Below are positions 1,066-37,452 of a stretch of 38,365 nt of DNA, in pieces. This DNA comes from an uncultured Gammaproteobacteria bacterium. GTDB taxonomy: Bacteria; Patescibacteriota; Patescibacteriia; UBA9934. Within the stretch, counting starts at the first letter, position 1, and every line of letters begins with the position of its first letter. The notes under the pieces were generated by a model that saw only the letters and a list, made by a program, of their open reading frames with translations, did not search any database and was not told the origin of the DNA. The stretch spans positions 1 through 38,365 of the forward strand of contig CAZXUX010000002.1 in assembly GCA_964644265.1 (NCBI GenBank). Direction: 5' to 3'. The position numbers and the translations under genes were made by a program.

Positions 1066-1498
1066 ATTGTCATCTCGACGCAAGGAGAGATCTTTCTGGA
1101 TGTTTTAGAAATTAGGTTCGGCTTTTTATGTGGGGCCCTGCCCCACCCCACCCCATTAGACAAGCTCAGGGCAGGCCAGATACTTTCTTTCGGAACAAAG
1201 AAAGTATCCAAAGAAACTACGTAGCCGCCTATTCGACTCTACCGGGGATAGGCCGGTCAGTACTCGGGCAGGCCAGAATCCGGCCAATACTCTACTACCT
1301 GAGGATTACATGACCCTTATGGTATTGACCGAATGCTGGCCTGCTATTCCTCGTACTTTTGCCCGGCCATAACCCCGGCAGATTCGACGGCGGCGTGAAC
1401 CTGAGTGAAGGCTCAGGGTGAGTAACCTCTCGTTGCAACCTATCGAAAGCCACCAAACGAACCCCTCGCTGTCGCTCGGAGTCGCATCCGAACGAGCC
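1066..1498 (+). repeat. Structured dispersed repeat, copy A (5' leader tcatctcgacg..gagagatctttc plus ~340-nt body)
   Basis: Body from gatactttc (1179) to gtcgctcgg (about 1480) is nearly identical by eye to 6622-6927 and clearly homologous to 12202-12508. Leader 1069-1096 recurs at 6374-6400. Confidence 0.85.
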
Positions 1499-1617: not shown

Positions 1618-3744
1618 CTACTTGTTGGCGATTGCGGCGTTCTGCAGCTCGGGGTGCCTGGCGAGCACCTCGGGCGGGAGCTTTGCCGTGCAGTCGCAGG
1701 GGAACGTGTCGGGGTTGAGCTTGCACACGGTGCCCGGCGAGAGCTCCTGAGCACGTTCGTGCTTGGAGATCTTCGCCTGGTACTCGTAGCAGACCCGTTC
1801 CCGAACGGTGAGCGGGACGTCGATGGCCTTGGCGGTCTCGACCACGGCCTTCTCGCTCGCGCCGCGGGCCAAGGTGACGGTCTGAGCGACCGCCACGTCA
1901 CCCATGACAGCGTGAGCCGCGTACGAGGTGCCGCCAACGCCGATTCCGAGAGTCAGCAGCAGCGCCGCCAACACAGAACCGGCGGTGATCATGCCCTTCA
2001 ACGCGCGCCGTCGGAAGTCGACCGAGAGCAGGCGACGATCGTCGTGCTCGGAGGTCAGGTTCCACCCCCGCACATACAGCTCCCCGACCATGAGGACGAG
2101 GAACCCGGCGGAGGCGAAACAGACCGAGACGAAGATGTTTCCCCGCCCGATCAGCATCCAGACGTTGCCAGCAGCGGCAACGACCGTGGAGACGATGGTG
2201 ACCGTCAGCGCCCGTTGGCGCAGGAACGACACCGGCTCCTTCTGCTGGACGAGGTCTTCGACCGCAGCGGTCGAGCTTCGCTCTCTGAGCGGAAGCCCGC
2301 CCAACTTCCTGAAGTAGTTGCCGATGTCGAGCCCCGTGCCTCCGATGAGGCCGGTGCCGTCAGCCGGATCCAGGAAGTTCTTGAGCTTCTTGAACAGGGT
2401 CGGGACCCCGTCCAAGGCAACGATCAGCAGCCGCGACACGCAGATGCCGACGATGCCCGCGTTGAGCCAGAAGTAGCTCCCGTCCCTGAACCCCCACAGA
2501 AGGGTGGCCAGGCCGGATAAACCAGCGAAGCCAACCAGACCCATGAACAGGATCACGTAGAGGATCGGCAGACCCAGGAACACCAGGCCGATGATCCAGA
2601 ACGCGACGGTCCTCGGCCACGAGGGCTCGGTGATCAACTTCGGTGCTGCCTCGAGCCAGCCAGTCAGCTTGTTGCGGAAGCTGGCACGTCCGGCGGCCGT
2701 TGACGAGTCGTCGATCCAGTCGCGGGCCGTCAGCGCCATGTAGAGCGGCGTCGAGATCTTGTCGCGTGCTTCCGCACGGAGCAAGACCTCGAACGGAGCG
2801 AAGATGTCGATCACGTCCTCGACGCAGTCGAGGTACCTCCGACGCTGCGCGTGCAGGGGGTGATCGCCGTCGATCGCGACGTTGGAGCGCTCCAGCCACT
2901 GCAGCGCCTCGATGCAGTCGGGGAACTTGTCCTCGTCGGGAGGCTCGATGTCCGACAACGCCTTGAGCGCGGCCGGGCACACGTTCAACCGTTCCAGCGC
3001 CGCCTTCAGGGCGTGCGGCTGGCGCGGCCGATCGATCTTGTCCTCGAGCCGGGCGTTCAGGATGCGCCAGAACAGCGCCAGCTTCCGCTGGTCGTCCGGG
3101 CTCATGGAGCCGAAGTCGACCTTGCTCGGCTTCGCGGTGTTGTCGATCTCGACGACGCCGTGTTTGCGCCATTTCGGGAAGCAGTCGGGGCACAGGGTAA
3201 CCCAGCCATCCTCGATGGCATCCTTGTCCCATTCGATTACCGACAGCAGGTTATGCATCTCCACTCCCTTCGGGAGTTGGGTGGAGCAACCTTTACGGTG
3301 AATCGTCCGACTTACCGGATCCTTCCAACCGTTCTTGTCCTCCAAGTCCTGCTCGACCTTGGCCTGGCTTGCCGCCAGGGGATCCCGCACCACGACCTCG
3401 ACCTCTTCCGCGGTCTTCGCGTTCTCGATCATGCGCCTCATGCCATCCGGCAAGCCGCGCAGCATCGGGGGAACAGCGAACCGAAACAGGTAGGGCAACT
3501 TGTGGTTGCGTTCGATCGCCTCTGCCAGCATCATCGCGGCACCGACTCGCATCGGCTCCGGGATGTTGAACAGGATGCGGGCGATCGTGCCAGCCGTGGT
3601 TTCCTTGGTCAGGAGCACGGCGGGGTTGATCTGAGCCAGGAGTGCTTCGAAGCCCTCCTCGGACATCTCGCGAACCACGTCGGCAATGAAGCCGATACCC
3701 TTGTTTTCGAGCGCCTCGGAAGAGGACAAAGCGTAACGAGCCAT
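1618..3744 (-). CDS. Hypothetical large polytopic membrane protein (ORFan). Soluble N-terminal ~380 aa with a Cys/His cluster (HRKGC...CPDC), then >=7 TM helices, then a Cys-containing C-terminal tail
   Basis: Long GC-rich ORF. Start moved to ATG 3742-3744 because GGAGG lies 6 nt upstream (ggaggccaccATG). No family recognised by eye. Confidence 0.75.
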   Translation of the reverse strand: MARYALSSSEALENKGIGFIADVVREMSEEGFEALLAQINPAVLLTKETTAGTIARILFNIPEPMRVGAAMMLAEAIERNHKLPYLFRFAVPPMLRGLPDGMRRMIENAKTAEEVEVVVRDPLAASQAKVEQDLEDKNGWKDPVSRTIHRKGCSTQLPKGVEMHNLLSVIEWDKDAIEDGWVTLCPDCFPKWRKHGVVEIDNTAKPSKVDFGSMSPDDQRKLALFWRILNARLEDKIDRPRQPHALKAALERLNVCPAALKALSDIEPPDEDKFPDCIEALQWLERSNVAIDGDHPLHAQRRRYLDCVEDVIDIFAPFEVLLRAEARDKISTPLYMALTARDWIDDSSTAAGRASFRNKLTGWLEAAPKLITEPSWPRTVAFWIIGLVFLGLPILYVILFMGLVGFAGLSGLATLLWGFRDGSYFWLNAGIVGICVSRLLIVALDGVPTLFKKLKNFLDPADGTGLIGGTGLDIGNYFRKLGGLPLRERSSTAAVEDLVQQKEPVSFLRQRALTVTIVSTVVAAAGNVWMLIGRGNIFVSVCFASAGFLVLMVGELYVRGWNLTSEHDDRRLLSVDFRRRALKGMITAGSVLAALLLTLGIGVGGTSYAAHAVMGDVAVAQTVTLARGASEKAVVETAKAIDVPLTVRERVCYEYQAKISKHERAQELSPGTVCKLNPDTFPCDCTAKLPPEVLARHPELQNAAIANK

Positions 3745-3928
3745 GGTGGCCTCCATCCCTACGCCTTACGGGCAGGGAGAATGGGTTGTTTTCTCTAGTA
3801 ACCTAGATTGTTAGAGAACGTGCTCCAAAAGGCCATCCTCCTTCGCTAAAGCTACGGAGGACATGCACTTCAGAACGTGGAACTATAGCATTTTTTGGCC
3901 AAAAAGTCAATTGCTCTCTATTGGGCTC

Positions 3929-4768
3929 TCATAACCCACCTGGAACAACGACAAGAGAAGATTGTAGATATGTTAGCGGATTTCTAAACATTTGAGGAGT
4001 GTTAATGCGTGCCTCTATTTCCCACAGGAGTTGTGGCAGGTGTTCTTTCCAGACATGGTGATAAGTTCTTCTAATGTGGCGTTTAAGAATAGACCAGATA
4101 CCCTCGATCCTATTAGTCGGTCCAAAGACGAATTTAGAGTGGTTGCAAGCCTCATGGATGTAGCCGAAGAACTCATCTATACCCTCGTAACATGTGGCAC
4201 TATCCGTGTAGACCGTTGAGCCTTCGTTGATATGCTCCAGTAGAAACCTGTCGGTAGTTCCCTGGCTTCTATTTGGCACTATTCTGAGAATCACTTTCTC
4301 CTCTTCTCGACACCATGCTCCAAGCACAATTCTCTGGTTCTTGTACCGTCTCCTGCCCACAAACGACTCATCTACCTCGACCTCTCCTAGGAATTTCTCT
4401 GGTGAAACATAGACAAGATGACGACGAAAGCGCCCATACCAGCGTCTTACTGTGATGATGGACACAGAAGCCATACTGGAGGCTGCAGGCAGCGTGTATT
4501 GAGCCTGCCAACACTGTAGAAGGATCCAGATCTGTCGCAATGAGAGTTTGGTGCAACCAAGCCAGGAAACTGAGAAAAGACTGAATGGTCGACGACACTT
4601 AGGGCACCGATACCGCGCTTCCGACTGCTTTATATGGCTAGTACCACAGCGCGGACAAAACACACGTTTTCCAAAGGTTGCATGACGGAAAAGTGAACGC
4701 AACTTGGCGTTTGAGGGAACCTCATCTATTCTAAACATATGGAACAGCTCGATTGAAGAGTAAAGCAC
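3929..4768 (-). CDS. IS1595-family (ISXO2-like) DDE transposase with N-terminal zinc ribbon
   Basis: CPRCG...CPKCRR zinc ribbon. Motifs VEVDESFVG, VYTDSATCY and ACNHSKFVFGPTNRIEGIWSILKR match the IS1595 DDE transposase family. Confidence 0.9.
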   Translation of the reverse strand: MLYSSIELFHMFRIDEVPSNAKLRSLFRHATFGKRVFCPRCGTSHIKQSEARYRCPKCRRPFSLFSVSWLGCTKLSLRQIWILLQCWQAQYTLPAASSMASVSIITVRRWYGRFRRHLVYVSPEKFLGEVEVDESFVGRRRYKNQRIVLGAWCREEEKVILRIVPNRSQGTTDRFLLEHINEGSTVYTDSATCYEGIDEFFGYIHEACNHSKFVFGPTNRIEGIWSILKRHIRRTYHHVWKEHLPQLLWEIEARINTPQMFRNPLTYLQSSLVVVPGGL

Positions 4769-4811
4769 TTCAATCTTACCGCTGTTCCATTTGGTTTCTA
4801 AAAGCCCTCTA

Positions 4812-4830
4812 TTGGCCTTTGGCTATTGGC
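4812..4830. repeat. Three phased TTGGC heptamers upstream of the transposase start
   Basis: TTGGC at 4812, 4819 and 4826 (7-nt period). Same array type as at 9727-9761 and 20629-20647. Confidence 0.6.
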
Positions 4831-5039
4831 TTTTAGAAGTTGTCTGGGGTAGCTAGTCTTAGCTAAATTGGCTAATATTAGCAAAATAATGCTATTATGA
4901 GGCTTGACAGGATGGGGAAAATATGCTATTGTTAAGTGTTACTAGGTAGGGCAAAAGTAACTTAGTTAGGCCTTGCCAGTAGCTAGTGTCTTTCACAACC
5001 AACCACCCCGACGCTACGGTCGGGGTACAGGAGGTGCCA

Positions 5040-5747
5040 ATGCGCACCATCGTCATGCTGTTCGGCCTGTTCTGCCTGGTGCTCCTCGGCGCCCCCGCCT
5101 TCGGGCAGGAGGCGCCCACGCCGACGGCGGAGGAGTTCCGCCAGCAGGCGGAGACCTTGAAGCTGATCGCCGACGCCAAGGCTCAGCTCGCCGCCCTCGA
5201 GGCGGCCAAGGTGGCCGAGCCGGTGCACGTCAACAGCCCCCGCCGGCACCACGTCTACGTGGACGCCTGCGGGGTACAGATCCTGAACCAGCCGGCCAAT
5301 GGTCGGCACACGGAGAGGATGATGGCGCAGAGCAACGACTGCGCCCGCACCCAGGTCGCCCAGACCGACGCCGACACCCGACGGGTGGAGGTGCTCGACC
5401 GCGGAGACCAGGGAGACACGATGACCGCGGCCATGGCTGCGGCCATCGTGGACAGCAAGGGCGCCGCCAACACCTACGCGGACACCCAGAACGGGCAGTA
5501 CGCAACGGGCGCGGCGGCCGTCCAGGCCGCCCGAGGCTTCAACAGCTTCGACGGATCCAGCTTCAACGGCTGGGTCGAAGGCCAGGCCTGGGCCAACCAG
5601 CTGCTGAACGGCAGCGCTCCCGCGCCGGCACCCGTGGTCACCAACCAGGCGCCGGCGCCCAAGAAGGTCGTCACCGTCCCCTCCACCCCCACCCCGAGCG
5701 CCAAGGACAAGGCCGACAAGGCCCTGGCCGACGCGCTCAAGGAGTGA
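5040..5747 (+). CDS. Hypothetical secreted protein (Ala/Pro-rich, ORFan)
   Basis: GGAGG 5 nt upstream of ATG 5040. Signal peptide MRTIVMLFGLFCLVLLGAPAFG/QE. GC-rich codon usage. Confidence 0.7.
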   Translation: MRTIVMLFGLFCLVLLGAPAFGQEAPTPTAEEFRQQAETLKLIADAKAQLAALEAAKVAEPVHVNSPRRHHVYVDACGVQILNQPANGRHTERMMAQSNDCARTQVAQTDADTRRVEVLDRGDQGDTMTAAMAAAIVDSKGAANTYADTQNGQYATGAAAVQAARGFNSFDGSSFNGWVEGQAWANQLLNGSAPAPAPVVTNQAPAPKKVVTVPSTPTPSAKDKADKALADALKE

Positions 5748-5749
5748 GC

Positions 5750-6289
5750 ATGTTCCACCTGTTCACGTTCGTGGTCCTGTTCTTCATCGGCTCGGCCTAC
5801 GCGGTCGACCCGACGGCGCCCCTCGCACCCGGCACGTTCGTGCTCGGGAGCCTGCCGCCGGACATGAGTCCGAACTGCAAGGAGGGCGTCAACAAACGCC
5901 CGTACTTCATCTCGCCAACCGTCGTCGGCGTGGCCACCCACCAGGTGTGGGACGGCAAACCTCCGAACGAAGGTGGTCACATGGTGGTGATCCGGCAGGG
6001 TGATAAGCTCGTGCCGGTCATTCCCGCAGCGGCAGTCCTCAAGCGGGATAGCAGCGGCAAGCCGATCGAAACGGATCCAGTGCGCTTTTGGTACTGCCTG
6101 AGCGCGACCAGGGTCAACTTCGGTGGCACGGTCCTCTCGGGGCCGAACAACAATCCCGTGACGGATGGTCCCGTCACTCTCTACCTGGGTGAGTTTCACG
6201 AAGTAGGGGCCTGCGGCAACATCTTCGTCGACCAGGCCGATCCGCGCCACAGCAGCGTGGAGTTCAACTCCACGCGCTGCGGGCCCTGA
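5750..6289 (+). CDS. Hypothetical secreted protein, 4 Cys (ORFan), translationally coupled to 5040..5747
   Basis: GGAG overlaps the upstream stop (ggagTGAgcATG). Signal peptide MFHLFTFVVLFFIGSAYA/VD. It is the in-frame tail of spurious track ORF 4973..6289. Confidence 0.7.
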   Translation: MFHLFTFVVLFFIGSAYAVDPTAPLAPGTFVLGSLPPDMSPNCKEGVNKRPYFISPTVVGVATHQVWDGKPPNEGGHMVVIRQGDKLVPVIPAAAVLKRDSSGKPIETDPVRFWYCLSATRVNFGGTVLSGPNNNPVTDGPVTLYLGEFHEVGACGNIFVDQADPRHSSVEFNSTRCGP

Positions 6290-6312
6290 CGAGCCCAAAC
6301 CAATCGTCACGC

Positions 6313-6352
6313 ACGGCCGGATCTTTCATGATCCGGCCGTTCTTCTTTTTTT
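6313..6352 (+). terminator. Rho-independent terminator; also the right inverted repeat of the GC-rich cassette
   Basis: cggccggatc-tttcat-gatccggccg followed by ttcttcttttttt, 24 nt after the stop at 6289. Confidence 0.8.
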
Positions 6353-6403
6353 ACGCGTTGTCTCTACCGCGAGTCATCTCGACGTTAAGGAGAGATCTTT
6401 CAG

Positions 6404-6429
6404 GACACGTCAGTCGCGACTGACGTGTC
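6404..6429. repeat. 26-bp perfect palindrome
   Basis: gacacgtcagtcg/cgactgacgtgtc is exactly self-complementary. Confidence 0.9.
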
Positions 6430-6469
6430 AGGTTGCTCGTATCTGCGATCGGCTAAGCCCGAGCCGTAA

Positions 6470-6545
6470 CTGAGTGGCAGCGACCCCGACGTACGTCGGG
6501 GCAAGTGGTGGCACTTGATAGGTTGCGACGTGAAACTTGGCCACT
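6470..6545 (-). repeat. Inverted, diverged partial copy (3' module) of the structured repeat (copy E)
   Basis: ccccgacgtacgtcgggg-N5-GGTGGC-N7-AGGTTGCGACG parallels copy D (ccctgagcgacagcgaaggg-N7-GGTGGC-N7-AGTTTGCGTCG) and the reverse complement of copies A-C. The hairpin is replaced by a different but still self-complementary sequence. Confidence 0.55.
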
Positions 6546-6596
6546 TCGAACGAAGGTGAGAAGCTAGGTTCCAGGGCAAATATTTCTGTTTATTTT

Positions 6597-6940
6597 GGTG
6601 GGACTTCGCCCCATCCCCCCTGATACTTTCTTTCGGAACAAAGAAAGTATCCAAAGAAACTACGTAGCCGCCTATTCGACTCTACCGGGGATAGGCCAGG
6701 CAGAACTCGGGCAGTCCATATTCCGGTCAATACTCTACTACCTGAGGATTACATGACCCTTTTTGTATTGACCGGAGATGGCCTGCGTTGCCTCGTTCTA
6801 TTGCCTGGCCATAACCCCGTCATATTCGAGGACGGCGTGAACCAATGCGTGAGGGCTCATGTGACGCAATCTCTCGTTGCAACCTGTCGATTGCCACCAA
6901 ACGGACCCCTCGCTGTCGCTCGGGGTCTGGCTCGTGAGAT
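6597..6940 (+). repeat. Structured dispersed repeat, copy B (its 5' leader is displaced to 6374-6400 by the 6401-6590 insertion)
   Basis: Nearly identical to copy A through most of its length. All helices are intact (12-bp hairpin 6622-6651, 12-bp helix 6722-6733/6765-6776). Confidence 0.85.
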
Positions 6941-7057
6941 ATGACGCTCCCTGGCCTTACGGCCTTGAGGGTATCCGTCATAAGTTTTTATTGACGCTTA
7001 CGCTTCGCGTTCCCTGAGCTGAGCCCCCGCCCTTACGGGACGGGGTTTCAAGTGGAA

Positions 7058-7090
7058 GTAATAAAAAAGACTCCCGTGAGAGAGTCTTGC
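7058..7090 (-). terminator. Rho-independent terminator of the pilin-like operon
   Basis: Minus strand reads aagactc-tctcacgg-gagtctt followed by ttttttatt, about 15 nt after the stop at 7106. Confidence 0.75.
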
Positions 7091-7105
7091 TGCTTTGAAA
7101 AATGT

Positions 7106-7489
7106 TTACCCTGTGCCTGTTGCGGTGGTGAGTTGTTCGATGACGAAACTTGAGATGGCGTAGGCAGAGAGCAGGATTACTAGACCAACAACCGAGGTGG
7201 TCATGATGCCCCTGGCTGTCTTTACCTTGCCGTCATCGCCAGCGGCGGTCATCCAGAGGAAACCGGCGTAGATGATGAGAACCAAGAAAATGATACCCAG
7301 CAAGCCGAGGAACACGTTGATCAAAGTACCGATCGTCTGTTCCAATGGCTGGTTGCCGAAGCCGGCGGTATCGTTTACGTCTTCAAGCGCTCCGGTGATG
7401 TCTACCTGCGCATTGGCGCGAGGCGCGACTAAACCGCTAAGAGGTAGAGCCAGCAACGCTGTGCCGACCAAAAGGTGTTTCAGTTTCAT
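7106..7489 (-). CDS. TrbC/VirB2-like 'T4SS pilin' family small membrane protein (paralog 6)
   Basis: Signal peptide MKLKHLLVGTALLALPLSGLVAPRANA. Shared core LINVFLGLLGIIFLVLIIYAGFLWMTAAGDDGKVKTARGIM..GLVILLSAYAI (two TM helices around a short charged loop). Start trimmed to M14. Confidence 0.8.
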   Translation of the reverse strand: MKLKHLLVGTALLALPLSGLVAPRANAQVDITGALEDVNDTAGFGNQPLEQTIGTLINVFLGLLGIIFLVLIIYAGFLWMTAAGDDGKVKTARGIMTTSVVGLVILLSAYAISSFVIEQLTTATGTG

Positions 7490-7558
7490 AATAGGCATTT
7501 GATTTGTTAAAAGTATACACGACTCCACTGCTAACTCATTTAACTAGTGTGCATAGGT

Positions 7559-7939
7559 TTATATCCCCGTCCCTGTAGTTGCCACACCAAGAGCACCGAC
7601 AATGAATTCGGCGATGGCGTAGGCAGAGAGCAGGATTACTAGACCAACAACCGAGGTGGTCATGATATTCTTAGCTGTCTTTACCTGGCCGTCATTGCCA
7701 GCGGCGGTCATCCAGAGGAAACCGGCGTAGATGATGAGAATCAGGAAAATGACGCCGATGAGACTAAATAGAACATTGATCAATGTACCAATAATTACAG
7801 CAAGGTCGGTTTGTGCACCAGGACCATAGGAAGCCTTCCCGGCATCATCAAGGCCGGTATCAAAGACTTGTGCAGCCACCGCTCCCGGAGCGGCCGTTAG
7901 TACTAGCAGAAAAAAACTGAGAGCTATTTTTTTTAACAT
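7559..7939 (-). CDS. TrbC/VirB2-like 'T4SS pilin' family small membrane protein (paralog 5)
   Basis: Same core (IIYAGFLWMTAAGNDGQVKTAKNIM). Start trimmed to M12 (ATG 7937-7939), which removes the overlap with the upstream gene. Confidence 0.8.
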   Translation of the reverse strand: MLKKIALSFFLLVLTAAPGAVAAQVFDTGLDDAGKASYGPGAQTDLAVIIGTLINVLFSLIGVIFLILIIYAGFLWMTAAGNDGQVKTAKNIMTTSVVGLVILLSAYAIAEFIVGALGVATTGTGI

Positions 7940-7943
7940 AAAA

Positions 7944-8318
7944 CTAAGCGCCGGTAGCTGGAGAGAGCGCATTAATTACCGTATTGGTAATTACGTAGGC
8001 CATGGCCATCAATACTGCCCCGGTTATCGAAGCGATCAAAATATCTTTCGCGTGCTTTACCCGGCCTGAGTCACCCTGCGAGGTCATCCAAAGGAATCCG
8101 GCGTAAACGGTAAGTACCAAGAAGATAAGTCCGGTCAAGCCCAAAACGGGTGCGATGATATAGGTTCCGATAAAGGTAGCAATATTGAGATCGCCCGGGG
8201 TACCAAAGACCTCATCACCGGTGGCTGTTAAGCCACTGGAATCAGCATTGAACTGCGCCAAAGCCATGCCAGGCAATAATAGCTGTATGGCGATAGCCAG
8301 AGCGACCAGTTTTCGCAT
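7944..8318 (-). CDS. TrbC/VirB2-like 'T4SS pilin' family small membrane protein (paralog 4)
   Basis: Signal peptide MRKLVALAIAIQLLLPGMALA. Core VYAGFLWMTSQGDSGRVKHAKDIL. Confidence 0.8.
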   Translation of the reverse strand: MRKLVALAIAIQLLLPGMALAQFNADSSGLTATGDEVFGTPGDLNIATFIGTYIIAPVLGLTGLIFLVLTVYAGFLWMTSQGDSGRVKHAKDILIASITGAVLMAMAYVITNTVINALSPATGA

Positions 8319-8388
8319 AGTGCAGGCCCCCACTTCGCTCTAAGTCTGCAACCTAGAGCTACGTTGGGGGTCCTCAGCGTGAGAAAAC

Positions 8389-8784
8389 CTATTGAGTAGC
8401 TTCGATGAGCGATGAGATGACGAAGCTAGCAATGGCGTAGGCGGACAAGATGATTGCCAAGCCAATGATGCCGGCAATAATCAGACGCTTTGCTTCTGCC
8501 ACCTTCTCATCATTACCGCCAGCTACCATCCACTTAAAGCCACCGTACAAAATGATGACTACCGCGATTACACCCAAGAAACCAAGGGCGACGCGAATGA
8601 GCTGACCAATGGTGTCCTGAAGATCTGCCTGACCGAGTCCGGTGGTGTCACCGAAATTCGAGTTCAGAATGTCTTCTGCCTCAAGCGGTTGGGCGTGGAC
8701 AATGGGCGACAAGCGAACGAAGGGCAAGACAAGTGCCAAGCCTAGAGCGACGCTGACGCCAAAACGAATGAGTTGCTTCACCAT
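8389..8784 (-). CDS. TrbC/VirB2-like 'T4SS pilin' family small membrane protein (paralog 3)
   Basis: Signal peptide, then core ILYGGFKWMVAGGNDEKVAEAKRLI..GLAIILSAYAI. Confidence 0.8.
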   Translation of the reverse strand: MVKQLIRFGVSVALGLALVLPFVRLSPIVHAQPLEAEDILNSNFGDTTGLGQADLQDTIGQLIRVALGFLGVIAVVIILYGGFKWMVAGGNDEKVAEAKRLIIAGIIGLAIILSAYAIASFVISSLIEATQ

Positions 8785-8825
8785 AGTGAAAAGTTGAATT
8801 AAATACTTCTAAAATTGTATCACGC

Positions 8826-9194
8826 CTAAGGCGCGGTAGTGGCACTGCCTGTGGTCAAGGCTTGGATAACTGCGTTAACCACCACATACGAAGCGGCAAT
8901 CATGGCCAAGCCGAGCACTGCCCAAACCAAAATCTTCTTACCTTTATCAATCCTAGCCGACTCCCCCATCGACGTAATCCAGAGCACTCCGCCGTAGACG
9001 AACATAAGAAGAGCAATAGAACCGACCACGGAAAGTATGGCTTGAATGAGGCGACCAATTAGCAGACGGGGGTCGGTAGCCTCTGGGCCTGAACCCAAGG
9101 GATTGATTAGCTCGACTGCTTTGACGGCGTGCGGTAAAGCGCCAAGCAAGGCGATGGCTAAGTAAGCCGAAAAGTATGACAAATATCTATTCAT
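8826..9194 (-). CDS. TrbC/VirB2-like 'T4SS pilin' family small membrane protein (paralog 2)
   Basis: Signal peptide, then core FVYGGVLWITSMGESARIDKGKKIL..GLAMIAASYVV. Start is 2 nt after the upstream stop. Confidence 0.8.
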   Translation of the reverse strand: MNRYLSYFSAYLAIALLGALPHAVKAVELINPLGSGPEATDPRLLIGRLIQAILSVVGSIALLMFVYGGVLWITSMGESARIDKGKKILVWAVLGLAMIAASYVVVNAVIQALTTGSATTAP

Positions 9195-9196
9195 AA

Positions 9197-9697
9197 TTAA
9201 GGACTGAGCGAATCTGTATTGTCTTGAGCGTTATTTATGGTGTCGTTGATCGTTCCGGCTGGCCTATCGCCGGCGACAGAGGCGATCACGAAGTTCATAA
9301 TTGCGTACGCGCCCAAAACTAAAGCCAAGCCGATAATGGCGTTTACTACGGTTTGTTTACCTCGATTAACGCGCTCTGGATCACCTTCTGAGGTAATCCA
9401 GACAAATCCACCATAAACAAACATAAGTAAAACTACCGAGCCGATAATGCCCAAGATGCCGGTGCTGATGTTTACAAAAATCTGAAGCACTTGATCAACT
9501 GAACACTGACCAGAATCCCGACACGGGCAGTCAGTAGAAGTGCAGTCTGGCATGTTGGCGAAAATCAAACCGTTATCCATGATTGACTGATAGCCGCTCT
9601 CGACGTCTGACTGTGCAAATACTGGCACTGCACTGAAAAAAAAGAGTGACAAAAAAGCGCTGGCTAGAACTATGGTTAACGCCAAGCTGCGGAACAT
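9197..9697 (-). CDS. TrbC/VirB2-like 'T4SS pilin' family protein, Cys-rich variant (paralog 1, first gene of operon)
   Basis: Signal peptide. Insert CTSTDCPCRDSGQCS. Core FVYGGFVWITSEGDPERVNRGKQTV..GLALVLGAYAI. Extra polar C-terminal tail. Confidence 0.8.
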   Translation of the reverse strand: MFRSLALTIVLASAFLSLFFFSAVPVFAQSDVESGYQSIMDNGLIFANMPDCTSTDCPCRDSGQCSVDQVLQIFVNISTGILGIIGSVVLLMFVYGGFVWITSEGDPERVNRGKQTVVNAIIGLALVLGAYAIMNFVIASVAGDRPAGTINDTINNAQDNTDSLSP

Positions 9698-12147: not shown

Positions 12148-12156
12148 AGCTGGCTT

Positions 12157-12165
12157 ATTATAGCA
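12157..12165 (-). promoter_or_regulatory. Extended -10 (TGCTATAAT) 9 nt upstream of the galU ATG (leaderless-type)
   Basis: Minus strand reads tgctataat-aagccagct-ATG. Confidence 0.5.
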
Positions 12166-12177
12166 CTTTGTGTTTGT

Positions 12178-12592
12178 GGGGCTTCGCCCCTACCCTAAAA
12201 AATACTTTTCTTTCAATCACCAAAGAAAAGTATCCAAAAGAAGTCTCTGCCGCCTTTCGAATCTGGCCGGGGATAGGCCAGGCAGAACTCGGGCAGAACT
12301 AAATCTAGCCAATTCTTATTCCTGAGGATTACATGGCTCTAGTTGTATTGACTAGATGTAGTTCTACATTCCTTCGTTCTATTGCCTGGCCATAACCCCG
12401 TCATATTCGAGGGCGGCGTGAACCGATGCGTGAGGACTCAGGGTGAGTAACCTCTCGTTGTAACCTAACGATTGCCACCAAACGGACCCCTCGCTGTCGC
12501 TCGGGGTCGAGCTCGTGCAGGTGTGCGATGGACGCGAGACGACCCTGACCCCGCACCTTTTGACTTTGTCGACTGAAAAAGGTGCGGGGGAA
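12178..12592 (+). repeat. Structured dispersed repeat, copy C (most diverged full copy) with an extra 13-bp 3' hairpin
   Basis: Collinear with A and B from ggggcttcgcccc (12178) to tcggggtc (12508). Carries compensatory changes in helices. Extra hairpin ccccgcacctttt..aaaaggtgcgggg at about 12548-12590. Confidence 0.85.
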
Positions 12593-12624
12593 GGGTCTAT
12601 CATGTGGTGTATTGGAAATTAGAG

Positions 12625-17305: not shown

Positions 17306-17395
<90 letters not shown>

Positions 17396-31857: not shown

Positions 31858-31974
31858 TTTACACAGATTGTTTATTGGGTAATTACAGATTTTTCACAGA
31901 TGCTTTTAAGGTTTACAGAGACTGGGCTCTTCTGTGTGTAATTTGTAAATTGCTTCCTTTACTGTCTGTGTAAA
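31858..31974. promoter_or_regulatory. Cluster of six (A)TCTGTGTAAA-like motifs in the dnaA/rpmH divergent region
   Basis: tttacacagat 31858, aattacagattt 31881, ttcacagat 31893 and gtttacagag 31911 (reverse orientation). tctgtgtgtaa 31931 and gtctgtgtaaa 31964 (forward orientation). Confidence 0.5.
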
Positions 31975-36900: not shown

Positions 36901-36923
36901 AGTGCGAGCGGATCTGTGTAAGC

Positions 36924-36996
36924 GTCCCTGAGCGACAGCGAAGGGTCCGTTTGGTGGCGGTCGTTAGTTTGCGTCGAGAGGTTACTCGACCTGAGA
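36924..36996 (-). repeat. Inverted partial copy (3' module) of the structured repeat (copy D), overlapping the dcd-like stop codon
   Basis: gtccctgagcgacagcgaagggtccgtttggtggcggtcgttagtttgcgtcgagaggttactc is the reverse complement of the 3' module of copies A-C, with few changes. Confidence 0.8.
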
Positions 36997-37353
36997 AAAA
37001 ACTATTTTTACAAAAGTTTGCTCCGCCTTAAAAGTAACAACTTCTTGCGAATTATTGATAACAGAAAGTTTTAGCTTGCCCTTAAATCCTGGTTCTACAA
37101 AACAGTCGGTCATCAGAGCGTCGACTCCCCTTCTGGCGATGCTGCCTCGAGTAAACAATATGCCGCAGATGCTTGAGCCAAGACCCAGCTTTTCATTGGT
37201 TTCGACCACAGAAAAGACTCCTGGTTCGAGCGTAAGGTCACGATCGATCGACAAGGTGTAGCTGGCCTCTTTGAGGCGATCCTCGGAGAAAGGCTCAATT
37301 GTTATCTCACCAGCTTTGATGCGTTCGATGATTGAGGAGGCTTTGAGGGCCAT
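36982..37353 (-). CDS. Compact dCTP deaminase / dUTPase-superfamily protein
   Basis: MALKASSIIERIKAGEITIEPF...SYTLS...LEPG.F....T.E...L......G.L..R.S.AR.GV......V.PGFKG.L.L...N pattern. Start set to ATG 37351-37353. Confidence 0.7.
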   Translation of the reverse strand: MALKASSIIERIKAGEITIEPFSEDRLKEASYTLSIDRDLTLEPGVFSVVETNEKLGLGSSICGILFTRGSIARRGVDALMTDCFVEPGFKGKLKLSVINNSQEVVTFKAEQTFVKIVFSQVE

Positions 37354-37452
37354 AATTTGAGGTGTTATCGAGATTCTTCGAGTCATCACTCCCCCACGCC
37401 ACCACTTGAGGGGTCCTTCGTTGTCACTCAGGAACTGGATGCGCGTCAAGCG

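Follow-up and report, generated by a model that had tools for sequence, protein, structure and literature searches.

A family of folded repeats in a 38,365-nt stretch of DNA (contig CAZXUX010000002.1, hereafter the window) from an uncultured, ultra-small bacterium of the Patescibacteria is, on balance, probably a lineage-restricted, non-autonomous foldback element, resembling miniature inverted-repeat transposable elements (MITEs) and REPINs, that is bounded by a pair of inverted modules, M and M', and moves or is copied via a single-stranded intermediate. On this reading the repeat is not a conserved stand-alone RNA gene. A first-pass annotation, made from the letters of the window, had described an unclassified structured repeat of about 340 nt with compensatory base changes and had seen in these a sign of selection on an RNA or single-stranded DNA fold, with a MITE origin as the alternative. 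We judged this alternative to be the better explanation.

The three collinear copies reported in that annotation, here A, B and C, were recovered as direct repeats by a repeat search of the window (1176-1484, 6619-6936 and 12267-12517) and had a mean column identity of 78% in a three-way alignment. An nhmmer profile built from the copies placed the core units, all on the minus strand, at 1125-1500 (copy A, E = 8e-119), 6593-6944 (copy B, E = 1e-122) and 12171-12520 (copy C, E = 2e-113), and all three are intergenic. Read along the minus strand, each consists of module M, a small hairpin, a 170-nt imperfect hairpin, an A/T-rich 12-bp hairpin (H1), a GC hairpin (H2) and an A-rich tract; in copy A, H1 carries a 25-nt insert. 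Module M, which opens each copy, is 75-90 nt long and comprises a two-part GC hairpin followed by GGTGGCAATCGAnAGGTTGCAACGAGAG. In copy B it occupies 6850-6943 (minus strand) and reads CGAGC..GACCCC-GAGCGACAGCGA-GGGGTC.GTTTG and then GGTGGCAATCGACAGGTTGCAACGAGAG; a fuzzy search for the M hairpins located the equivalents at ~1405-1500 in copy A and 12430-12520 in copy C. The central imperfect hairpin of copy B (6667-6836, minus strand; helices 5-8 of the consensus) has ~58 pairs and an apical loop of ~35 nt containing AATCCTCAGG, and matches its own opposite strand by nhmmer (E = 1e-5 to 1e-7). H1 (6622-6651) and H2 (GGGGCGAAGYCCC, 6600-6612) together take up 6600-6651 on the minus strand, ahead of the A-rich tract.

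We compared the window with a sister strain (ENA contig k141_1081852, loci L082 and L085; housekeeping genes 96-98% identical), which has copies at the same three sites and brings the DNA of this species covered to ~60 kb, and with relatives that retain the local gene order. In GCA_049296775.1 (locus L094) and in L095, from another sample (DnaA 81%, GalU 79%), the order galU-SBP-six pilins-two open reading frames (ORFs)-large ORF-Wzy_C is kept, and the spacers measure 135, 110 and 78 nt, compared with 477, ~795 and ~556 nt in the window. The 110-nt spacer at site B and the 78-nt spacer at site A are both empty, and the nhmmer profile found no copy in these loci. Site C is also empty in L094, L095 and L096, and in the closer relative L091 (GalU 90%; from the same sample as contig L093, whose DnaA is 94% identical), where the methyltransferase-galU spacer measures 87 nt. 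Judged from these spacers, the copies are insertions, present in this species only, and the idea of a conserved RNA locus did not survive the comparison. Across 1.45 Mb of fetched loci the same profile found copies in this species only, with none in 96 loci from outside it, 80 more distant loci and L091-L096 included; exact-pattern scans of genome, metagenome and viral contig collections returned no copy, and blastn against plasmids and phages gave no match. Short-read contigs from other samples (L086, L087 and L089) end inside copy C, as is expected of a repeat.

The ends of the element are best seen at copy B, whose unit is closed by module M' (6455-6545, plus strand), a diverged and inverted form of M. 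M and M' have CTGAGYGRCAGCGA, GTGGTGGCAcTTGATAGGTTGC and GTGGTGGCAnTTGATAGGTTGC in common; the small hairpin of M' differs (CCCCGACGTACGTCGGGG). Copy B and M' together form a complete unit of ~490 nt (6455-6944), complete units being ~460-490 nt long with a core passenger made up of the 170-nt imperfect hairpin and two small hairpins. The terminal inverted repeat is 39 nt long and 74% complementary in the window (6506-6544/6861-6899), and 26 nt long and 73% complementary in the sister strain (L085, 19399-19424/19808-19833). In folds of whole units including M', M pairs with M' (z = -8.2 as DNA for 6440-6960, -11.8 as RNA). The first-pass annotation had listed two partial, inverted copies of the M part. 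One of them, at 36922-36995, was solid (nhmmer E = 3e-15). The other, M' itself, was weak by profile (E = 0.097); it was backed by direct alignment, by the 39-nt inverted repeat with the copy B module and by a 91%-identical counterpart in the sister strain (L085, 19770-19851), where M' follows copy A. Copy B of the sister strain is followed by a degenerate M'. Long imperfect inverted repeats thus close the complete units, as the MITE alternative had led one to look for; no target-site duplication was visible at sites A, B and C or at the unit described next, with ends that are not base-exact and empty sites that come from diverged relatives.

The M...M' frame also encloses a gene. The lone M module at 36922-36995 (plus strand) lies directly after a dCTP-deaminase-like gene on the opposite strand (36982-37353, minus strand; 123 aa, Pfam DCD/dUTPase) and supplies its stop codon. 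On the other side of this gene, inverted relative to the lone M, lies a degenerate M'-type module (37397-37432, minus strand; CCTGAGTGACAACGA...CAAGTGGTGGCG) that shares ~30 of 31 conserved positions with the M' of L085. That one frame can hold the hairpin core in one place and a gene in another suggests that M and M' are the functional ends. The gene is missing from L092 and L093, in which its two neighbours are adjacent; L092 retains an M-like hairpin, CCCCGAACGAAAGTGAGGGG, at the orthologous spot, the sole match with up to three substitutions outside the species in the 1.45 Mb. The gene may have been gained here or lost in the relatives. The dCTP-deaminase-like gene is unusually short, and its product is an orphan: a search of 5.8 billion proteins returned its own cluster only, and we dropped this cargo as a route to related elements.

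That one inverted module pair brackets two different passengers could also mean that M and M' are folded-DNA recombinase sites, either attC-like or inverted Xer-site modules, with the passengers as cassettes exchanged by recombination. The position of the modules at the 3' ends of genes, the strand-specific fold (as in attC bottom strands) and the segments swapped between copies and sites in the two strains, described below, would fit such a system. We nevertheless consider it improbable. Neither the window nor the sister-strain loci contain an integrase or recombinase gene, copies A and C each have a single module, and inspection of the helix bases revealed no R''/R' cores (RYYYAAC/GTTRRRY). 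Integron attC sites are palindromes of 57-141 nt that carry these cores and stand in an array beside an intI gene, whereas the hairpin here is 170 nt and the unit 350-490 nt, three to four times longer than known attC sites.

The nested helices of the first-pass annotation were all present in the RNAalifold consensus: the 12-bp hairpin at 6622-6651, GCCGCC/GGCGGC, CCGGGG/CCCCGG, GGCCAGGCA/TGCCTGGCC, the 8-bp helix, the further 12-bp helix and the small GC hairpin. Every copy tested folded better than dinucleotide shuffles on both strands (z from -5.5 to -7.6). The annotation had drawn the fold on the plus strand, and in this it was mistaken. The consensus of the three window copies folded at -143 kcal/mol on the minus strand versus -116 kcal/mol on the plus strand, with 43 G.U and 5 A.C cells on the minus strand versus 15 and 13 on the plus strand. 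With the three sister-strain copies added, giving six distinct copies, G.U occurred in 17 pair columns against 3 with A.C (binomial p = 0.0026), and pairing reached 96.9% on the minus strand versus 88.9% on the plus strand. From this asymmetry, the pairing and the energies, the conserved fold belongs to the minus strand, the reverse complement of the orientation first proposed. Mutational strand bias was ruled out as the source of the G.U excess, as local GC skew is ~0.

The compensatory changes held up in the six-copy alignment. In the RNAalifold structure 97.1% of pair cells were standard pairs, compared with 28-46% when partners were slid by 1-3 columns; eight pairs (21 cells) had changed on both sides, and neither the covariation score nor the percentage paired was reached by any of 500 column shuffles. 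Nearly all of the double changes lie in the central long hairpin, six of the eight pairs being in its apical helix. In module M, consensus helices 1 and 2 were 100% and 90% paired and the one-sided changes were all via G.U. The fold is constrained, and the evidence for this is good; it includes few independent events, because only about three haplotypes exist. Selection on a single-stranded fold and not on a peptide, as first suggested, agrees with the compensated pairing and with a frameshift in two of six copies of the only candidate ORF. The decamer AATCCTCAGG in the apical loop is unchanged in all six copies, with variation at neighbouring loop positions. A loop motif reported as invariant, CCTGAGGATTACATG, was so within the three window copies only; one sister-strain copy reads CCTGAGGATTTTATG.

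The earlier failure to assign the repeat to a known RNA family was repeated with covariance models. Rfam scans, including one of the element alone with lax filters, gave nothing at the gathering score and only noise at E <= 10, with Flavivirus-5UTR as the best match (19.5 bits; gathering score 80). By covariance-model score the repeat thus did not belong to the 6S, OLE, ROOL, GOLLD, HEARO/omega RNA, group I/II intron, ribozyme, tmRNA, RNase P or SRP families. ARAGORN detected no tRNA- or tmRNA-like module in the repeat, and over the window it found two ordinary tRNAs only, both outside the repeat.

A fold confined to one strand would be explained by a single-stranded intermediate, and we examined how this strand lies relative to replication. 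Cumulative GC skew is lowest at ~27-28.5 kb, and beside dnaA, at 31858-31974, there is a cluster of four TTTACACAG motifs that resemble DnaA boxes; together these probably place oriC at ~28-32 kb. Copies A-C lie to the left of oriC with their sense on the minus strand, and the lone M lies to its right with its sense on the plus strand, so that the folding strand is the lagging-strand template in four of four cases. A bias towards the lagging-strand template is a feature of the IS200/IS605 single-strand transposons (PMC5027513). Two exact copies of TTTACACAG adjoin the M end of copy A (1502-1532), and a copy with one mismatch adjoins the lone M (36914-36922).

The folding strand of copies A-C is also co-oriented with the upstream genes, and it is here that a functional structured RNA has to be weighed as the point of the element. 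Such an RNA could act in cis, as a processing or stability module in 3' untranslated regions that is transcribed by readthrough from the upstream gene, as has been suggested for REP, ERIC, BOX and Correia elements, or in trans, the apical loop AAUCCUCAGG, which is anti-Shine-Dalgarno-like, pairing with ribosome-binding sites and mobility merely spreading the gene. The excess of G.U over A.C on this strand, the very stable RNA folds (z = -7.4 and -7.6) and the unchanged loop decamer would all suit an RNA, and transcription and function as RNA are known for many bacterial repeats (PMC3184786). We nevertheless give this explanation only about a quarter of our belief. Copies A and B sit behind canonical intrinsic terminators of upstream genes, and copy B is flanked by two convergent ones (7067-7088, minus strand; 6313-6340, plus strand). 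No conserved promoter-like or terminator-like site was found inside the element on either strand. The lone M has its folding strand antisense to the genes around it, absence from relatives at 81-94% DnaA identity argues that the element has no conserved cellular role, and neither the M/M' ends nor the alternative passenger has a place in an RNA-gene model.

Copy C is flanked by a terminator-like palindrome and by the TGCTATAAT box of galU, which the 3' end of the copy touches. It displaced the -35 region of the galU promoter (12148-12180); the extended -10 box, TGCTATAAT here and TGCTATACT in relatives, stays. Since only this box remains, the insertion of copy C may have changed galU expression.

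On the plus strand, the apical loop reads GAGGA-N4-ATG, a Shine-Dalgarno-like sequence with a start codon that is kept in six of six copies, including one with three nearby substitutions. In a multicopy, structured, intergenic locus this might suggest a small peptide such as a type I toxin, with the fold and the opposite strand serving as mRNA structure or antisense regulator, as in LDR and SIB of E. coli. We regard this as very unlikely and rejected peptide coding. The ORF starting at this ATG is not a conserved peptide: frameshifts give lengths of 20, 63, 20, 20, 20 and 38 aa in the six copies, the two 20-aa types have ~9 of 20 residues in common, and no hydrophobic stretch of transmembrane length, as expected of the conserved small hydrophobic ORF in type I toxin-antitoxin repeats, is present. 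Substitutions track base pairing, not codons.

A further possibility, which we hold to be slim and a little slimmer than that of recombinase sites, is that the one-strand fold is an RNA needed for the spread of the element itself, which would then be a protein-less satellite with a guide-like or bridge-like RNA. Specificity would lie in the invariant apical loop and the paired internal loops, and the RNA would be used by a nuclease or recombinase with its gene elsewhere (resembling TnpB/IscB or IS110, or of another type) to home or recombine the M...M' unit. If true, the element would be a hitch-hiker that brings RNA alone to an RNA-guided mobility system, in a bacterium of the candidate phyla radiation (CPR).

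At matching sites of the two strains the copies are mosaic. Sister-strain copy A has a left end like that of window copy A and a core of the copy C type (93% identical to window copy C, 70% to window copy A), and sister-strain copy B has a core of the copy A type; its H1 has given way to an unrelated hairpin, CCCCGCACCTTTT...AAAAGGTGCGGGG, found upstream of copy C too. These mosaics between strains indicate recombination among family members. Copy types differ by 20-32%, and galU DNA differs by 21% from the nearest insert-free relative; a divergence between copy types as large as this suggests that other parts of the genome hold a diversified pool of copies. The swapped-in hairpin belongs to a second family, CCCCGCACCTTTTT-loop-AAAAGGTGCGGGG, seen in the window at ~12560-12600, upstream of copy C, and with a different loop at ~15215-15255 of L085, inside sister-strain copy B in the place of H1. 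Beyond the modules, segments downstream of copy B are shared as well. The stretch 6373-6454 contains GGCTTAGCCGATCGCAGAT, a perfect 26-nt palindrome (6404-6429) and AAAGATCTCTCCTTnnGTCGAGATGAC. The latter sequence is found again next to copy A at 1069-1100, which matches 6373-6405 in a self-BLAST of the window. This suggests an ancestral duplicated unit of ~600 nt that may have decayed differently from site to site.

We favour, as stated at the outset, a foldback element. M on the left and M' on the right are its diverged inverted ends, with a passenger, either the hairpin core or the dCTP-deaminase-like gene, between them. Units have inserted into intergenic spacers behind terminators, in this species only, and pairing of M with M' closes complete units. 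Compensatory and G.U-type changes uphold the fold, on one strand only, and copies at fixed sites swap segments and shed their M' end. An enzyme encoded elsewhere in the genome may recognise the folded ends, and the element would then move or copy itself via a single-stranded intermediate.

Several observations weigh against this model. Most copies are one-ended, M' being absent from A and C. For the three full copies, the strand expected of an RNA is also the one expected of single-stranded DNA (ssDNA), and only a fragment, the lone M, tells the two apart. The invariant AATCCTCAGG decamer is left unexplained by a purely structural requirement. Neither a target-site duplication nor a conserved target motif was found, with ends placed only approximately, since the relatives that supply the empty sites are diverged (galU DNA identity 79% and 72%). 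The documented insertion events number only three or four and are confined to 37 kb around the origin. Some of the mosaicism may stem from chimeric metagenome assembly; the covarying arms of the apical helix are safe from this problem, since they lie within 77 nt of each other. Finally, the ~60 kb of this species contained no transposase or recombinase with matching ends, and the ends of its only insertion sequence (IS), of the IS1595 family, are unrelated. Among the larger ORFs, searches with Pfam, NCBIfam and PADLOC identified the IS1595 transposase as the sole transposase and no recombinase, reverse transcriptase, HUH or Cas-like protein.

REPINs are the closest precedent. These are hairpin-forming mobile repeats "in ssDNA or mRNA" in which compensatory changes are common and which leave singlet remnants (PMC3116915). 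Like the repeat described here, with its M/M' pair and lone M, the REPIN/RAYT system has protein-less intergenic units of two inverted modules and a spacer, singlet remnants and an enzyme presumed to be encoded elsewhere (PMC3116915). The defining combination of inverted modules with a compensated hairpin is present here (M/M'; 97% pairing, eight doubly changed pairs) at a four to five times larger scale. However, REPINs measure ~70-110 nt, with REP ends of 20-25 nt and tens to hundreds of copies, whereas this repeat measures 350-490 nt, has ends of 75-90 nt and an extra 170-nt internal hairpin, was seen in three full copies, and shows no sequence similarity to them. No HUH/Y1 (RAYT-type) protein was found among the annotated ORFs of the DNA covered.

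Non-autonomous derivatives of IS200/IS605 elements, known as palindrome-associated transposable elements, resemble the repeat in having hairpins close to the two ends of one strand, a strand-specific structure and an active strand that is the lagging-strand template, with no target duplication seen (PMC5027513); here the M hairpin lies on the left and the H2 or M' hairpin on the right of the same strand. In contrast, the ends of IS200/IS605 elements are not mutual inverted repeats and they use a fixed left target motif, whereas the ends here are inverted copies of each other and no fixed tetra- or pentanucleotide precedes the left end, where the bases are ATCT at copy B in both strains, CCTG at copy C and CACA at copy A, with a boundary uncertain by a few bases. 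No TnpA was found in the DNA covered.

Classical MITEs (Correia, ERIC, RUP, MaeMITE and Nezha) are likewise small, non-coding, multicopy and intergenic, with terminal inverted repeats and long stem-loops; they often lie beside terminators or promoters, and the size seen here falls within the listed range of 100-435 nt (PMC3184786). Terminal inverted repeats were present in the two complete units, and copies A and C have no right end. MITEs of the DDE type differ in having short direct target duplications and the ends of a parent IS, neither of which was seen in the DNA covered, and the one-strand G.U bias is not expected under double-strand recognition. BOX elements of pneumococcus and BIMEs of E. 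coli resemble the repeat in their interchangeable hairpin modules, which follow a fixed order and are lost or swapped between copies; they are unlike it in their unrelated sequence and size, their tens to hundreds of copies and their lack of long terminal inverted repeats.

The features of the repeat thus cross established classes, combining long inverted ends of the MITE kind with a one-strand compensated fold, a lagging-strand orientation and an absence of visible target duplication that recall REPINs and single-strand transposons. Genomes of the CPR/Patescibacteria are ~1 Mb in size with very short spacers, and here a protein-less element of 350-490 nt has invaded three spacers within 12 kb by the replication origin, inside a strain-variable cell-surface island. 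In the literature we found no description of MITE- or REPIN-like repeats in these bacteria. If the mechanism is confirmed, the element would represent a new end architecture among folded-DNA mobile elements and a marker of strain-level rearrangement in an uncultured lineage. The case is also a cautionary one for RNA discovery, since compensatory changes together with an excellent folding energy were not enough here to signal a conserved RNA gene.

DnaA homologues place the window in the Patescibacteria near Uhrbacteria, with relatives at 100%, 94%, 90% and ~81-83% DnaA identity. Its genes include dnaA, dnaN, rnpA and those for a class A penicillin-binding protein, GalU and a bifunctional PGI/PMI, as well as six tandem T4SS-pilin-like genes, a Wzy_C protein, several unknown ORFs and one IS1595-family transposase. 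Copy A lies between the terminator of a 712-aa ORF and the end of the Wzy_C gene, and copy C between a methyltransferase gene and galU. The 712-aa protein had no match in Pfam, NCBIfam or PADLOC. The pilin paralogues and the unknown 712-aa and 438-aa ORFs (1618-9697) are 82-91% identical between the two strains, against 96-98% in the housekeeping genes, which marks this region as a strain-variable cell-surface island that holds copies A and B.

The IS1595-family IS at 3925-4803 (transposase at 3929-4768, minus strand) lies between duplicated CTCTATTGG. The site is precisely empty in L085 of the sister strain, which makes the insertion recent and specific to one strain; it has no relation to the repeat family. 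An origin of the repeat as an IS1595-derived MITE was rejected, since the inverted repeats of the IS are its own, its duplication is clean and its ends are unrelated. The segment 14827-17271, which adjoins a tRNA-Ser gene (17306-17395), has different ORFs in the two strains, with parts only 86-87% identical, and may be an integration hotspot. Lastly, at 6945-7060, between copy B and the pilin terminator, there is an additional segment of ~125 nt containing two GC hairpins. It is missing in the sister strain, which has TTTTTTGTATCTCAC at this position, and AT/TAT occurs at both junctions, which hints at another small inserted element.

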